From: a bacterium
Lineage (GTDB): Bacteria; UBA8248
Assembly (NCBI GenBank): GCA_965213685.1
Contig: CBDBZY010000030.1
Coordinates: forward strand, 1 to 15,835
DNA: 15,835 bases
Direction of reading: 5' to 3'
The notes under the pieces were generated by a model. It searched no databases and was not told the origin of the DNA. It was given only the letters and a program-made list of their open reading frames with translations. The translations under genes were made by a program, and so were the position numbers. This document shows, piece by piece, positions 8,525-12,771 of the stretch (position 1 is the stretch's first letter; every line of letters begins with the position of its first letter).

Positions 8525-9184
8525 TCACCTCGCCTTGATCCCGTATTTCTCATACTTCTTCGCCGAGGCGGAGGTGCGCCTGGCGGATTCCGGCGTCTTG
8601 AGCTCCAGGAGATAGGGCCTCTGTGCCGAGACGGCCCGCACGGCGTCGAACAGCCCCTCCTCGTCGCCGCCCTTTTCCCACTCGCCTTCCTCGAGCTTCA
8701 CGAAGACGGGCTTCCCCTCGCCGAAGTCCAACGTGGGCACTCCGAAAACGCCCTGCTCCGCCGCCGCCTCGTGCTCCTGCGCGATCAGGGGGATGGTGGC
8801 GCCGCTCTTCATGTCCTCCTCCCAGCGGCCGACGTCCAGGCCCGTCTGCACGGCGATGTCGCGCAAAACCAGCTCGCTCGTGATGTCCTTGCCGTCGCGG
8901 TGCTTCGCCCTGTGGAGGGCCACGTGGTATTTATCGAACTCTGTCTCGCCCTGCAGCCCCGCGCACTTGGCCGCCTGGTGCGGAGGCATGTCCCTGCTCG
9001 GGAAGGTCCGATCCTCCCAGGCCCTCCAGTCCTCCCCCCGTGCGGGGCCGAAATTCACCTGCTCCAGCACGAAGGCCTTGTAATCGACCTGCAGGTCATT
9101 CCTCTTCTCCTGAAGGCGAACGAGCCATTCCATGGCCCTGTAGGCATAAGGTCAGACATAGCAATTCCACATGGTGGCTTTCAT
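8525..9184 (-). CDS. DsbA/FrnE-like thioredoxin-fold protein, probable selenoprotein (in-frame TGA 9154-9152)
   Basis: GAGGAGG SD and ATG 9184 give MKATMWNCYV-TGA-PYAYRAMEW, in frame with ORF 8525..9133. That ORF has the DsbA helical insert (ALHRAKH.DGKDI...L..IA...GLD) and the GVFGVPTL cis-Pro loop. Confidence 0.85.
9122..9138 (-). promoter_or_regulatory. Candidate bacterial SECIS element
   Basis: mRNA GGGCCAU-GGA-AUGGCUC forms a 7-bp stem (one G-U). It starts 13 nt after the UGA and its G-containing apical loop is 20 nt from the UGA. Confidence 0.65.
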
Positions 9185-9228
9185 GGTTTCCTCCTCGCAG
9201 GCAAGGCGTCCAGAAACACGGCTTCGCC

Positions 9229-9257
9229 ATCATACACCATACAAACCGACATGAGAA
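9229..9257 (-). promoter_or_regulatory. Possible sigma70-type promoter for the DsbA-like/DUF971 genes
   Basis: On the - strand, TTCTCA (9257-9252), 17 nt, TATGAT (9234-9229), in the gap after DUF4202. Confidence 0.35.
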
Positions 9258-9294: not shown

Positions 9295-9903
9295 CTATCC
9301 GGAGGAGGAGAGCGCCTGATGGAGCAACGCCTCCGCCCCGCTGTGCAGCGTCATCTCCCTGGCGGCCTCCTGCCCGCGCGGGGACATCTTCGCCCATGTT
9401 TTCCGCAAAATATCGACGATTTTCGCCTCCTCGTGGAGTCGGGAGAAATCCCACAAATAGTTCTCCAGAAACACCAGACACGCGACATCCTCGAGCGTCT
9501 GGGTTTCCGGGTCGGACTTCAGCCCCTGCTTTTTCAGCAACATCCGCACCCGCGCTATCGTCTCCTCCCCATAGCCCGCCTCCCTGAGAATCCCGGCCGC
9601 CCTCTCCCCGTGGTAGGCGTAGAGATACGTTCGCCACCGGTGATACCCCCTGCGACCGGGCGGATAGTCCGAGCGCGGAACCTCCCACCTGCATATGTGC
9701 TGGCTGCGCACCGCCAGACGCAGGGCTTCGGAGGCTTCCGGTGCGACGGCCTCCAGCCACTTCGTCATGCGCATCGAATACAGCAGCGCCTTCGGGTAGT
9801 CCTTGCCCTCAAAACTCTCGGCGTTCGGGTCCTTGGCGTTCGCTTCATCTATCCGGCGCAGCGCATCTTCCAGGCGGGCCAGGCGGGTGGATGGGGGGGT
9901 CAT
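9295..9903 (-). CDS. DUF4202 domain protein
   Basis: IDEANAKDPN, LRLAVRSQHICRWEVPRSDYP.GR.GY..WR, DPETQTLEDVACLVFL, KTWAKMS (the LED and KMS motifs). Start 9903 or 9921; the ORF-track start at 10020 lies in the promoter region. Confidence 0.88.
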   Translation of the reverse strand: MTPPSTRLARLEDALRRIDEANAKDPNAESFEGKDYPKALLYSMRMTKWLEAVAPEASEALRLAVRSQHICRWEVPRSDYPPGRRGYHRWRTYLYAYHGERAAGILREAGYGEETIARVRMLLKKQGLKSDPETQTLEDVACLVFLENYLWDFSRLHEEAKIVDILRKTWAKMSPRGQEAAREMTLHSGAEALLHQALSSSG

Positions 9904-9986
9904 CTTCCGTGCTTCCTCCATGCGGGAGGGGGGCGTCAGCGGCGGCACGCCAGGTGCGGCCATTCCGGAATGAACGCCTCCTCCCA

Positions 9987-10016
9987 TTGACAAGCGTGAA
10001 AGAACCGATATATTTT
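9987..10016 (+). promoter_or_regulatory. Sigma70-type promoter of the cobA-reductase operon
   Basis: Perfect TTGACA at 9987-9992, then TATATT 10009-10014 (16-nt spacer) or TATTTT 10011-10016 (18-nt spacer), in an AT-rich island. Confidence 0.65.
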
Positions 10017-10024
10017 CCATAAAA

Positions 10025-10080: not shown

Positions 10081-10890
10081 ATGTACCCAGCGAAAGTCCA
10101 GATCGTGGGAGCAGGCCCCGGGGACCCGGACCTCCTCACGCTCAAGGCGGCCAGAGCATTGAGAAGCGCGGATGTGGTGATTCATGATCGTCTCGTCAAC
10201 CCGGAGATTCTGCAACTTTGCCCGGGAGGCTGCGAGTTCATGGACGCTGGAAAATCCGCCGGACGCCACGCCATGAGCCAGAGGGACATCAACGCATCTC
10301 TCATCCGTTTCGCCCATAGCGGCTTGCAGGTAGTGCGCCTGAAGGGTGGAGACCCCTTCGTGTTCGGCCGCGGGGGCGAGGAGGCGCAGGCACTCGCCGA
10401 AGCGGAGGTTCCCTATGAAATCATACCGGGCATCAGCTCCGCCATCGCCGTGCCCGCCTATGCGGGCATTCCGGTCACGCACCGAAACATCGCCTCGTCC
10501 TTCACCGTCGTGACGGCCCATGAGGACCCAGGGAAACCGGAGGCGCAGGTGGATTACGCGCATCTCGCCCAGAGCACCGGAACGCTCGTCTTTCTCATGG
10601 GGGCGCGCTCCATCGGGCGCATATCCGCCGCCTTGATGGAAAATGGCATGTCGAAAGACACGCCCGCCGCGATCATCGAAAACGGAACGACGGGCAAGCA
10701 GGCAGCCTATCGCTCTCCGCTGGGGGAGGCGTCCAGCCTCGCGCAGCGCGAAGAGGTCTCCCCGCCCGCCGTTTTTCTCGTCGGCCCGGTCGCCGGACTC
10801 GAAGACCTCGTCTGGTTCGAGGCCGATGAAAGCCAGGAGATCTCCTGGCGCTGTGCCGCGAAAGAATTCCTCGCCAAAGTCGTTTCATAG
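10081..10890 (+). CDS. cobA: Uroporphyrinogen-III C-methyltransferase (SUMT)
   Basis: VGAGPGDPDLLTLKA, DRLV, VVRLKGGDPFVFGRGGEE, PGISS..AVPAYAGIPVTHR, TLVFLMG. Confidence 0.96.
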   Translation: MYPAKVQIVGAGPGDPDLLTLKAARALRSADVVIHDRLVNPEILQLCPGGCEFMDAGKSAGRHAMSQRDINASLIRFAHSGLQVVRLKGGDPFVFGRGGEEAQALAEAEVPYEIIPGISSAIAVPAYAGIPVTHRNIASSFTVVTAHEDPGKPEAQVDYAHLAQSTGTLVFLMGARSIGRISAALMENGMSKDTPAAIIENGTTGKQAAYRSPLGEASSLAQREEVSPPAVFLVGPVAGLEDLVWFEADESQEISWRCAAKEFLAKVVS

Positions 10891-10965
10891 ACGCCCGGGC
10901 TTCGTCCCGGCGCCAACAAATTCATCATCTGTCATCTGGACAGTCGTTCATCGCAGGAGCATACG

Positions 10966-12771
10966 ATGCATGAGCAGTCTCTCATCAAACCGGCGTCTCG
11001 GGAAAAATCAGGCGTCATTCCGGTAATCGCGGCAGAGCTGGACGATTTTGAAACGGAAGCCACGAAATTTCAGAACGGGGAGCTGGACAACAGCGCCTTT
11101 CTCCCCTATCGCCTCAAACGCGGAGTCTACGGCCAGCGGCAGGCCGACGCGCAGATGGTGCGCGTGAAAATACCTTTCGGGGGGCTGAGCGCCTCTCAAC
11201 TCGAAGCCCTGGGGCGCGTATCCCGCGACTACGCTCCTCTGGGGAAGGGCCATGTGACGACGCGGGAAAACGTGCAGTTTCACTTTGTGCCGCTCGGCGA
11301 AGCCGCCGACGTGCTGAGGCTCCTCGGCGAGGTGGGGCTCACCACGCGGGAGGCGTGCGGAAACTGCGTGAGAAACGTCACCGGCTGCCCGTATGCGGGC
11401 GTCTGCAAGGATCAGGTTTTCGACGCCACGCCCTATGCGGGCGCGTTCGCCCGCTACTTCGTGCGCAAGGACTTCACGCAGGATCTCCCGCGCAAATTCA
11501 AGGTGGCCTTTTCCAGTTGCGCTTCGGACTGCGTGGCGGGCGGAATCCATGACATCGGCTTCATCCCTCTCATCGAGGAGGTCGAGGGGAGCGCCGTCCG
11601 CGGATTCCGGATGCTCGTCGGCGGCGGCCTCGCCACCTTCGCGCGCACGGCGGAAACGCTGTATGAGTTCGTGGCGGTTTCTGATTTCCTGCGAGTGAGC
11701 GAAGCCCTCATCCGGGTTTTCGATCAGGCCGCCGAACTGCGGAAATCCCGCTTCAAGGCGCGCATCAAGTTTCTGGTGGCCCGGATCGGCATAGACGGGC
11801 TGCGCGCGCGCGTGGAGGCGGAACTCCGAAAGGATTGGGCGAAAGCGCCCGTCCATCCCGACCCCTATCTCTGGCGGGATGACGAGGACGCCGACGCCCC
11901 GCCCGTCCTGAACACCCTTGACGGGACGGGATTCCACCCGAACGGGGACGCAGCGGATTACGAGAGATGGAGAAACACGAACGTCCTCGCGCAAAGGCAG
12001 GAAGGTTATTTTGCCGTCGAAATCCAGCTGCCGCTGGGAAACATTCTGACAGAGCAGTTCTTCGCCTTGGCCGACCTCGCCCGACGTTTTGCGCGAGGGC
12101 GCGCGAGGACGAGCTTTGAGCAGAACCTCGTCCTCCGGTGGGTGCGGGCGGGCGAGCTGTATCCCCTGTGGAAGGAGCTGCGGCGCATCGGGCTGGCGGA
12201 AGGGGGCGCCCGCGAGATATCCGACGTCGTCTCTTGCCCGGGGACGGATTCCTGCAAGCTCGGCATCACTTCCTCGATGGGACTGGCGGGCGCCATACGC
12301 GAAACCCTCCGGGAGATCGACCATGACCCGCTCACGCGGGAGGTGCGCATCAAGATGAGCGGTTGCCCGAATTCGTGCGGCCAGCATCACATCGCCCACA
12401 TCGGCTTTCATGGCGGAACGCTCAAGGCGGACGGCGTGATGCTCCCCGCCTACGAGGTTTTCCTGGGCGGCCAATACGAAAGAGCGGACGGGCAAATCCG
12501 CATCGGCAAGCGCATTCAGGTGCGCATCCCCGCAAAGCGCGTTCCCGAGGCCCTCCGGAAGATGTTGTCCCGATACCGGGAGAACAGGCGCGCGGGCGAG
12601 CGCTTCAACGATTTTCTGGAGCGCGTCGGCAGCGGTTTCTTTGAAGACCTGTTGCGCGAATTCCACCTTTCTGGTTCATTCAACGACAAGCCGGACACCG
12701 ATTTGTTCGTGGACTGGAGCCAGGACAGGCAATACGTGCTGGAGAGAGGGGAGGGGGAATGCCTGGCCTAG
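10966..12771 (+). CDS. Siroheme-[4Fe-4S] sulfite/nitrite reductase hemoprotein (ferredoxin-dependent type), probably sulfite reductase
   Basis: GVYGQRQ, MVRVKIPFG, HVTTREN, LPRKFK, RFKARIKFL, CPGTDSC and SGCPNSCGQH; AGGAG SD upstream. Confidence 0.92.
   Translation: MHEQSLIKPASREKSGVIPVIAAELDDFETEATKFQNGELDNSAFLPYRLKRGVYGQRQADAQMVRVKIPFGGLSASQLEALGRVSRDYAPLGKGHVTTRENVQFHFVPLGEAADVLRLLGEVGLTTREACGNCVRNVTGCPYAGVCKDQVFDATPYAGAFARYFVRKDFTQDLPRKFKVAFSSCASDCVAGGIHDIGFIPLIEEVEGSAVRGFRMLVGGGLATFARTAETLYEFVAVSDFLRVSEALIRVFDQAAELRKSRFKARIKFLVARIGIDGLRARVEAELRKDWAKAPVHPDPYLWRDDEDADAPPVLNTLDGTGFHPNGDAADYERWRNTNVLAQRQEGYFAVEIQLPLGNILTEQFFALADLARRFARGRARTSFEQNLVLRWVRAGELYPLWKELRRIGLAEGGAREISDVVSCPGTDSCKLGITSSMGLAGAIRETLREIDHDPLTREVRIKMSGCPNSCGQHHIAHIGFHGGTLKADGVMLPAYEVFLGGQYERADGQIRIGKRIQVRIPAKRVPEALRKMLSRYRENRRAGERFNDFLERVGSGFFEDLLREFHLSGSFNDKPDTDLFVDWSQDRQYVLERGEGECLA

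Follow-up and report, generated by a model that had tools for sequence, protein, structure and literature searches.

DsbA-like selenoproteins have been known since an analysis of the Sargasso Sea, which described nine sequences with a UxxC motif, where U is selenocysteine (Sec) (PMC1088965), and a 2016 count found them in 41 organisms (PMC5029168, Table 3). Table 1 of a 2026 review distinguishes two DsbA-like forms, UxxC and DxxUP, with credit to Peng et al. 2016, and the same table lists SelW-like and AhpD-like selenoproteins with a CxxU motif, in which the Cys three residues before Sec is read as one half of a redox pair (PMC13188914). FrnE (DR_0659), a cytoplasmic disulfide reductase of the DsbA family, carries a CXXC motif and a C-terminal CXXXXC tail (PMC8945050). 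Here we analyze a DsbA-like gene on the minus strand of a bacterial DNA stretch of 15,835 nucleotides (nt), contig CBDBZY010000030.1 of GenBank assembly GCA_965213685.1 (lineage UBA8248), which we refer to as the window. By sequence comparison, this is almost certainly a genuine selenoprotein gene that has been mis-annotated. It is a selenoprotein of a known kind with a CxxUP variant of the active site and does not represent a new kind of system. A preliminary description of the window, made from its letters alone, had proposed a hidden selenoprotein with a DsbA-like fold and Sec at the nucleophilic position, and had noted that Sec-containing DsbA-like proteins were already on record. The catalogued UxxC and DxxUP forms bear out the second statement (PMC13188914, PMC1088965), and the first is upheld by ortholog conservation, Cys-containing homologs, a downstream hairpin, and Sec machinery in the genome.

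Translation of the gene (8525..9184) yields 219 residues followed by a TGA stop at 8527-8525. The frame of 219 codons opens with an ATG at 9184-9182, five nucleotides downstream of a GAGGAGG sequence (9196-9190), and starts MKATMWNCYV-TGA-PYAYRA-M18. The in-frame TGA is codon 11 (9154-9152), and no further stop occurs until 8527-8525. The list of open reading frames (ORFs) compiled under genetic code table 11 contains only 8525..9133, an ORF of 202 amino acids that begins at codon 18 (M18). The Pfam family DSBA (PF01323) matches residues 9 to 154 of the read-through protein on profile positions 8 to 172 (E = 2.1e-16; 60.7 bits against a cut-off of 25.6). Because this match starts at residue 9, the beginning of the domain is supplied by the 17 upstream codons, and the called ORF is left without strand 1 and the active site of the DsbA-like fold. 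The preliminary description had made the same two points, namely, that the first strand and active site are missing from the called ORF and that 17 in-frame codons behind a GAGGAGG Shine-Dalgarno (SD) sequence restore them, and both are confirmed by direct reading of these positions and by the PF01323 match. All 50 close database proteins that we found are truncated at or after residue 18 and lack the active site.

A six-frame search of 51 genomes of the phylum gave 49 full-length orthologous loci, one per genome and from 15 genera, which we extracted and compared. They extend from residues 1-5 to residues 212-220 with approximately 48 to 100% identity, and their presence in 49 of the 51 genomes would make the gene part of the core selenium-dependent redox set of this lineage, which is titled Nitrospinota. 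Of the two remaining genomes, one has only a 53-residue fragment, truncated where its contig ends, and the other (350 contigs) shows only a paralog. Every ortholog contains exactly one in-frame TGA (a TAA also counted in two rows is the ordinary stop), always at the same codon, within the motif C-Y-V/I-TGA-P-Y/F-A-Y-R-A, of which Cys at -3, Tyr at -2, the TGA, and Pro at +1 are invariant. The three codons preceding the TGA are fixed at the protein level, one Ile aside, yet variable in DNA (TGC 43 and TGT 6; TAC 40 and TAT 9; GTC 38, GTT 10, and ATC 1), as expected of translated sequence under purifying selection. All 49 orthologs have an ATG 10 to 14 codons before the TGA; the 20 nt preceding this ATG contain GGAG or GAGG in 42 orthologs and a weaker AGGA, GGGG, or AAGG in the other 7. 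The comparison shows, insofar as sequences can, that the frame would be translated from the ATG at 9184 and that its UGA is kept by selection.

Two trivial accounts of the TGA were considered and rejected. The orthologs terminate with TAA (28), TAG (11), or TGA (10); since TGA serves as an ordinary stop in 10 of 49 orthologs where others end with TAA or TAG, the genetic code is not reassigned. A sequencing error or nonsense mutation was rejected because the TGA occurs in 49 independent assemblies and in contigs of public sequencing runs from two studies, one of which may be the source of the assembly; these contigs have letters identical to the window over 9084-9211, with the TGA unchanged. 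The preliminary description had named the absence of any homolog with TGA at this codon, or reads with TGC or TGT in its place, as grounds for abandoning the idea; homologs with TGA do exist, and the run contigs show TGA at this place.

A single consensus helix was identified by RNAalifold in the 63 nt starting from the TGA of the 49 orthologs, in which nt 17-23 pair with nt 27-33 (the U of UGA being nt 1). In the window, this corresponds to a hairpin that starts 13 nt after the UGA, in which 9138-9132 pair with 9128-9122 around a GGA loop (9131-9129), and the annotated start codon M18 (9133-9131) falls within it. Standard pairs fill 98.7% of the stem cells, versus 38 to 48% when the 3' side is slid by one to three columns. 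The closing pair is C-G (19 orthologs), U-G (18), or U-A (12) and never C-A; codon 18 changes from AUG to ACG (Met to Thr) only where codon 19 is GAG and not GAA; and the Ala codon within the stem is GCC in 49/49, with the Ala three codons earlier encoded by GCC in 34, GCA in 8, and GCT in 7. Published constraints on bacterial selenocysteine insertion sequences (SECIS) are a loop of 3 to 9 nt with a G within the first two positions, a stem of 4 to 16 bp, a UGA-to-loop distance of 16 to 37 nt, and a minimum free energy of -7.5 kcal/mol or lower (PMC13188914, section 5 and Fig. 2 legend). The window hairpin satisfies all of these, with a GGA loop, a 7-bp stem, a UGA-to-loop distance of 20 nt, and -7.6 kcal/mol when folded alone. 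All 49 orthologs satisfy the first three constraints, and 44 of them also stay within the energy limit (-7.6 to -9.2 kcal/mol).

The preliminary description had recommended looking for selA, selB, selC, and selD, and all four were found over cut-offs in the window's genome, with selD broken by indels as assembled. The scores of selB (369.8 bits), the adjoining selA (564.2 bits), and the tRNA-Sec gene selC (78.6 bits; ARAGORN anticodon TCA) exceed curated cut-offs, and selD also exceeds its cut-off, at 172 bits. The selD gene is itself a Sec gene (G-G-U-G-S-K, with the UGA at the known Sec position) and serves as an internal control: its UGA is followed, 17 nt downstream, by a like hairpin with the same loop, GGGUCC-GGA-GGACCU. 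We strongly infer that Sec would be inserted at codon 11 by means of the hairpin and SelB.

Correspondence between Cys and TGA at a nucleophilic position is a classical mark of selenoproteins. A wider scan of one genome per species gave 91 relatives; we retained the 80 best and examined the motif in 50 of them (loci L073, L088, and L105-L152). Among L105-L152, 38 loci have D-F/Y-L-C-P-W/F-A-Y/F-R (for example, D-F-L-C-P-W-A-Y-R-G), with the Cys aligned with the window TGA; the titles of these Cys-form loci include Dormibacterota, Chloroflexota, and others. Two of L105-L152 lack the region, and eight are TGA forms, seven of them in records titled as other phyla. The eighth (L105, C-Y-V-U) stands in an untitled record and repeats a distant ortholog of the phylum. 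One locus titled Planctomycetia (L106; 42% identity) reads C-Y-V-U-P-Y-A-Y-R-V, and no other locus from outside the phylum among those examined has the C-Y-V-U-P form; this locus may reflect horizontal transfer. The other TGA forms read D-Y-L-U-P in three Desulfobacterales, D-Y-L-U-P-W-A in one Deltaproteobacteria, and D-F-R-U-P in one Dehalococcoidia record and one SAR202 record, and these D-Y-L-U-P-Y/W-A and D-F-R-U-P loci of other phyla share 30 to 42% identity with the window protein.

We also searched 1.84 billion cluster representatives with a profile, which gave 4344 matches at E <= 0.001 (62 at E <= 1e-30), and re-aligned the best 150 locally. In the 81 of these that cover the active site, the nucleophile is always Cys; none has Cys at position -3, where 79 have Asp, one has Asn, and one has Glu; and position +3 is Ala in 25, Val in 18, Ser in 17, Cys in 16, and Thr in 5. 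The preliminary description had placed the UGA exactly on the nucleophilic Cys of a family pattern D-x-x-C-P-x-(C/A/S) and had suggested a search for homologs with Cys or TGA at codon 11. Both kinds of homolog exist (the 38 Cys loci on one side; the 49 orthologs and 8 further loci on the other), the UGA aligns with Cys in the 38 loci and the 81 representatives and with Cys24 of DR2335 from Deinococcus radiodurans, and the pattern holds, with Ala, Val, Ser, Cys, or Thr at +3.

An AlphaFold2 model of the protein was built from an alignment of 19 Sec forms (Sec read as Cys) and 3 Cys forms. It has a predicted local distance difference test score (pLDDT) of 90.5 and a predicted template modeling (TM) score of 0.84, and it comprises a strand (residues 2-7), a loop (8-11), a helix (12-27), a second strand (32-37), a helical domain (40-143), a further strand (151-153), and C-terminal helices, whose confidence drops past residue 190. 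Pro150 occupies what we take to be the conserved cis-Pro position of thioredoxin folds. Comparison of the model to the PDB with Foldseek returned 167 matches at E <= 0.001, led by DsbA-like proteins. The best was DR2335 (7dk9; E = 5.4e-13; TM 0.77/0.80), followed by Rv2466c (TM 0.64-0.71), FrnE (approximately 0.57), and then classical DsbAs. The alignment profile likewise matched DR2335 best among PDB sequences (E = 2.9e-29, residues 7-202), with its D-F-L-C-P-Y-A-W-R lying on the motif. No NCBIfam family exceeded its cut-off for the selenoprotein, the best being the Rcas_1661 family with 26.6 bits against 190.

These matches place the protein relative to its described relatives. DR2335 (PDB 7DK9 and 7DKA) is the closest in both structure and sequence: homology runs the full length, including a shared C-terminal region up to K-x-P, the motif aligns residue for residue, and both proteins have a single nucleophile. 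The two differ in that DR2335 has Cys in place of Sec, Asp in place of Cys8, and Ala in place of Cys74. Rv2466c, the mycothiol-dependent nitroreductase of Mycobacterium tuberculosis, shares the cytoplasmic DsbA-like fold, but the window protein scores below the cut-off of its family (PF22234; 19.7 against 27 bits). Rv2466c presumably also carries a C-P-W-C pair. FrnE gives only a weak profile match (E = 2e-08, residues 61-158), and its CXXC and CXXXXC both lack a counterpart in the window protein, which has no Cys at +3 and none in a C-terminal tail. For this reason the protein is not FrnE-like in the strict sense, and the FrnE-like label of the preliminary description gives way to the single-Cys DR2335 group as the nearest relatives. 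That description had also argued that there is no signal peptide, and the model agrees: strand 1 begins at residue 2 and therefore leaves no room for one, and the start and SD are conserved, an argument made from the model and the orthologs with no predictor run. Together, these results support a cytoplasmic DsbA-like thioredoxin-fold protein of the single-nucleophile DR2335 group.

The active site departs from both catalogued Sec forms. Form 1 (UxxC) shares the DsbA-like fold and has Sec at the N-terminal position of the C-P-x-C register, as the window protein does, but it has a Cys at +3, whereas the window protein reads U-P-Y-A, with Ala at +3 invariant in 49/49 orthologs; the form-1 paralog in the same genome is approximately 30% identical. 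Form 2 (DxxUP) is closer, being a PF01323 protein with Sec followed by Pro and no Cys at +3 (as in 49/49 orthologs), but its Asp at -3 is Cys8 throughout the window's clade (CxxUP), which also has Cys74. The preliminary description had read the motif as CxxU with Cys in place of the usual Asp, and this stands: Cys in 49/49 orthologs versus Asp in 79/81 representatives. It had also remarked on the absence of a downstream resolving Cys as unusual. The absence is real, but it is not unusual: 65 of the 81 representatives do without a Cys at +3, which is thus the rule in the DR2335 group. By sequence, only the Asp-to-Cys change and the conserved Cys74 are unusual in the window protein. Compared to SelW-like and AhpD-like selenoproteins, in which Sec occupies the C-terminal position of the motif, the Sec here is N-terminal and the Cys lies one turn upstream, outside the helix.

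Cys8 is present in all 49 orthologs and in the Planctomycetia form (L106) and was seen only together with Sec. Cys74, within A-A-K-C-A, is likewise present in 49/49 orthologs; of the 81 representatives, 65 have Ala and 8 have Cys at that position. Outside the clade, the two residues are uncoupled: L106 has only Cys8 of the pair, and L109 only Cys74. Seven distant orthologs (L065-L071) have an extra Cys at -6 (C-Y-V-C-Y-V-U) and are without a DUF971 neighbor.

That neighbor, a gene of the DUF971/GBBH-like_N family, begins 25 nt after the selenoprotein stop and is probably co-transcribed with the selenoprotein gene. Its product contains C-P-C-A-N-C and a later G-G-C, both invariant in 15 aligned DUF971 orthologs. 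Other DUF971 proteins have His at the place of the conserved Cys in G-G-C-x-x-G-I-Y, and the window DUF971 protein may thus have a four-Cys site. The DUF971 gene immediately follows the selenoprotein gene in 41 of 49 ortholog loci and in 32/32 of loci L073-L104 (the two sets overlap in organisms); it is absent beside the most distant orthologs and beside the homologs of other phyla.

The mechanism that we favor would run as follows. Translation would start at the ATG at 9184 behind GAGGAGG, and the UGA at codon 11 would be decoded by SelB and Sec-tRNA(Sec), recruited by the 7-bp, GGA-loop hairpin 13 nt downstream, which contains the very ATG that gene callers would have mistaken for the start. 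Sec11 would sit at the N terminus of helix 1, in the place of the nucleophilic Cys of the DR2335 group (C-P-Y-A), and act as the attacking residue; homology with DR2335 predicts it to be the nucleophile in a cytoplasmic thiol/selenol-disulfide oxidoreductase of that type. The selenol would attack a substrate disulfide or mixed disulfide, after which Cys8 would resolve the intermediate as an intramolecular selenenylsulfide, giving a C-x-x-U center shifted one turn toward strand 1. The small, Cys-rich, conserved DUF971 protein would be a candidate partner or substrate. Taken together, Sec decoding with Sec11 as the nucleophile and Cys8 as a conjectured later step is the explanation we consider probable. 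The Cys8 step by itself, in which a C8-U11 selenenylsulfide would form across loop 8-11, is speculative, and we hold it to be somewhat less probable than its converse. More doubtful is the fuller scheme, in which a register-shifted C-x-x-U center with a strand-side resolving Cys8 would be joined by Cys74 as a third relay and by DUF971 as a dedicated substrate or partner, forming a selenium-dependent redox pair particular to this lineage, which is related to nitrite oxidizers.

Several observations weigh against this explanation, beginning with the machinery. As assembled, selD (contig C31, about 100950-102150, minus strand) is not intact but split over three frames by several single-base indels. 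Compared with a genus relative (81% DNA identity), the breaks are single-base gaps, mostly in G or C runs, and 21 of the 22 other genomes in the genus have an unbroken selD with one TGA, a pattern that suggests homopolymer assembly errors rather than a dead gene. The 17-nt hairpin alone has an energy of -6.4 to -7.1 kcal/mol in 5 of the 49 orthologs, above the -7.5 limit, and the 55 nt after the UGA are no more stable than shuffled sequences (z = 0.12). With regard to Cys8, Cys74 is as well conserved and could be the resolving residue instead, and Sec forms from other phyla still have Asp at -3, from which it follows that the enzyme family works without Cys8. Two reviews treat DR2335 as a DsbA-like protein that is predicted to be cytoplasmic and has one conserved Cys, and their passages on it report no function (PMC8945050, PMC6300522). 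If the TGA were instead a true stop, the product would be the 202-residue protein from Met18, with the upstream codons serving as a leader or untranslated region, or else the codon would be a nonsense mutation or sequencing error. All 50 close database proteins are annotated from such a Met18-type start. Met18 is Thr in 19 of the 49 orthologs, however, so there is no conserved alternative start; in addition, the upstream codons are conserved as protein with synonymous change, an SD and ATG precede the TGA in every ortholog, a product from Met18 would miss strand 1 and the active site, and the TGA recurs across the independent assemblies and run contigs. We regard a true stop or an error as exceedingly improbable.

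The main rival to the Cys8 mechanism accepts Sec and assigns it a monothiol-type mechanism, in which the Se-S intermediate would be resolved by a low-molecular-weight thiol (with coenzyme A [CoA] as a candidate) or by a partner protein; no C8-U11 bond would form, and Cys8 would merely take over the structural or acid-base role of Asp. The family at large speaks for this mechanism, with the 65/81 representatives without Cys at +3, the 79/81 with Asp at -3, and the D-x-x-U-P Sec forms in Desulfobacterales, Dehalococcoidia, and SAR202 records; the relatives Rv2466c and DsbM are titled mycothiol-dependent or were solved with glutathione (Pfam and PDB entries). In three independent representatives (P0074, P0093, and P0180, from 50%-identity clusters), dephospho-CoA kinase (CoaE, PF01121) is fused to a single-Cys DsbA-like domain (D-F-S-C-P-Y-V-Y-R-A and similar), a lead that points to CoA as a candidate thiol for the family at large. 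In the window, however, no coaE or thiol biosynthesis gene adjoins the selenoprotein gene, and a Cys at -3 that is invariant in 49/49 orthologs, under purifying selection, and found only with Sec is hard to explain as a purely structural residue; on balance, we find a monothiol mechanism unlikely. A quite improbable alternative is that Cys8, Sec11, and Cys74 form a metal or metalloid site and that the protein acts with DUF971 as a chaperone, sensor, or cluster-handling factor and not as an oxidoreductase. The three residues occur together only in this clade, the DUF971 neighbor in 41/49 loci carries C-P-C-A-N-C and a fourth Cys, and the review table includes several metal-binding selenoprotein families with CxxU or CU (PMC13188914). 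Against such a site, Cys8 and Cys74 are uncoupled outside the clade (L106 and L109), and distant orthologs within the phylum keep all three residues without a DUF971 neighbor.

With Sec11 as the nucleophile and Cys8 as its conjectured partner, the recoding itself is textbook, and the switch from Asp to Cys alongside Sec poses a neat if minor question of biochemistry: a change at -3 that occurs only with a Sec nucleophile is a natural experiment on where to place a resolving residue around a selenol. Our literature search found no description of a CxxUP DsbA-like form, with the supplements of Peng et al. 2016 and BSepDB lying outside its coverage and possibly listing such genes, and it found no paper joining DUF971 with a selenoprotein. 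The organism that carries ortholog L095, by its record title, is ranked among the selenoprotein-richest bacteria in the BSepDB paper (PMC13326102). In the profile search, 41 of the best 150 representatives start within 10 residues of profile positions 18-37, just past the active site. Such starts are what gene callers would give with a TGA at the nucleophile, so Sec forms of the family may be widely mis-annotated. Because of these starts and the 50 truncated database copies, Sec forms of the DsbA-like group are probably far commoner than records show. The features of the locus are collected in the table below.

Features of the selenoprotein locus in the window (position 1 is the first letter of the 15,835-nt stretch)
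Feature	Position	Strand	Basis
DUF971/GBBH-like_N gene, 120 amino acids	8137..8499	-	Pfam PF06155, E = 8.3e-18
Candidate selenoprotein coding sequence, DsbA-like thioredoxin fold with helical insertion	8525..9184	-	Translation, PF01323, AlphaFold2, Foldseek, orthologs
Codon 150, Pro, G-V-P-T loop	8735..8737	-	F147, G148, V149, and P150 invariant across Sec and Cys forms
Codon 74, Cys (A-A-K-C-A), helical domain	8963..8965	-	49/49 orthologs
SECIS-like hairpin, 7-bp stem and GGA loop	9122..9138	-	RNAalifold consensus helix
Codon 11, TGA, candidate Sec at the nucleophilic position of the C-P-x-x motif	9152..9154	-	TGA in 49/49 orthologs
Codon 8, Cys (TGC), position -3	9161..9163	-	Cys in 49/49 orthologs
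Shine-Dalgarno sequence GAGGAGG	9190..9196	-	Sequence; GGAG/GAGG common in orthologs
Promoter-like site TTCTCA-17-TATGAT	9229..9257	-	Consensus scan, 1 site versus 0.2 expected from shuffles; not functional evidence
DUF4202 gene	9295..10020	-	Pfam PF13875, E = 6.1e-75

The promoter-like site lies approximately 45 nt upstream of the extended start codon. Farther upstream, the DUF4202 gene is on the same strand, 110 nt before the start codon, and it is adjacent in 25/49 ortholog loci, mostly of the same genus; NCBIfam gave nothing for the DUF971 and DUF4202 neighbors. Beyond DUF4202, and divergent from it, the plus strand (10081-12771) carries a uroporphyrin-III methyltransferase-like gene (TP_methylase) and a sulfite/nitrite reductase (NIR_SIR), and the methyltransferase is kept at that place in 25/49 loci. 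The neighborhoods of homologs in other phyla are inconsistent, with AhpC/TSA in Planctomycetia (at L106:2501-3775, the peroxiredoxin gene is about 150 nt downstream), a luciferase-like monooxygenase in Dormibacterota, and a DUF1858/hemerythrin/PAS protein in Desulfobacterales.

The window's genome measures 7.97 Mb in 71 contigs and is 94% complete, with a stated contamination of 3.7%; the other 22 genomes of the genus measure 2.9 to 4.6 Mb. It contains a second hidden DsbA-like selenoprotein gene, on contig C36 (L157:277-936, minus strand), whose product begins M-D-S-E-R-V-R-F-T-V-Y-S-D-F-L-U-P-W-C. This second protein is of form 1 (UxxC), and its table-11 ORF also begins past the active site. 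A paralog of the form-1 type was matched in nearly all of the 51 genomes of the phylum.

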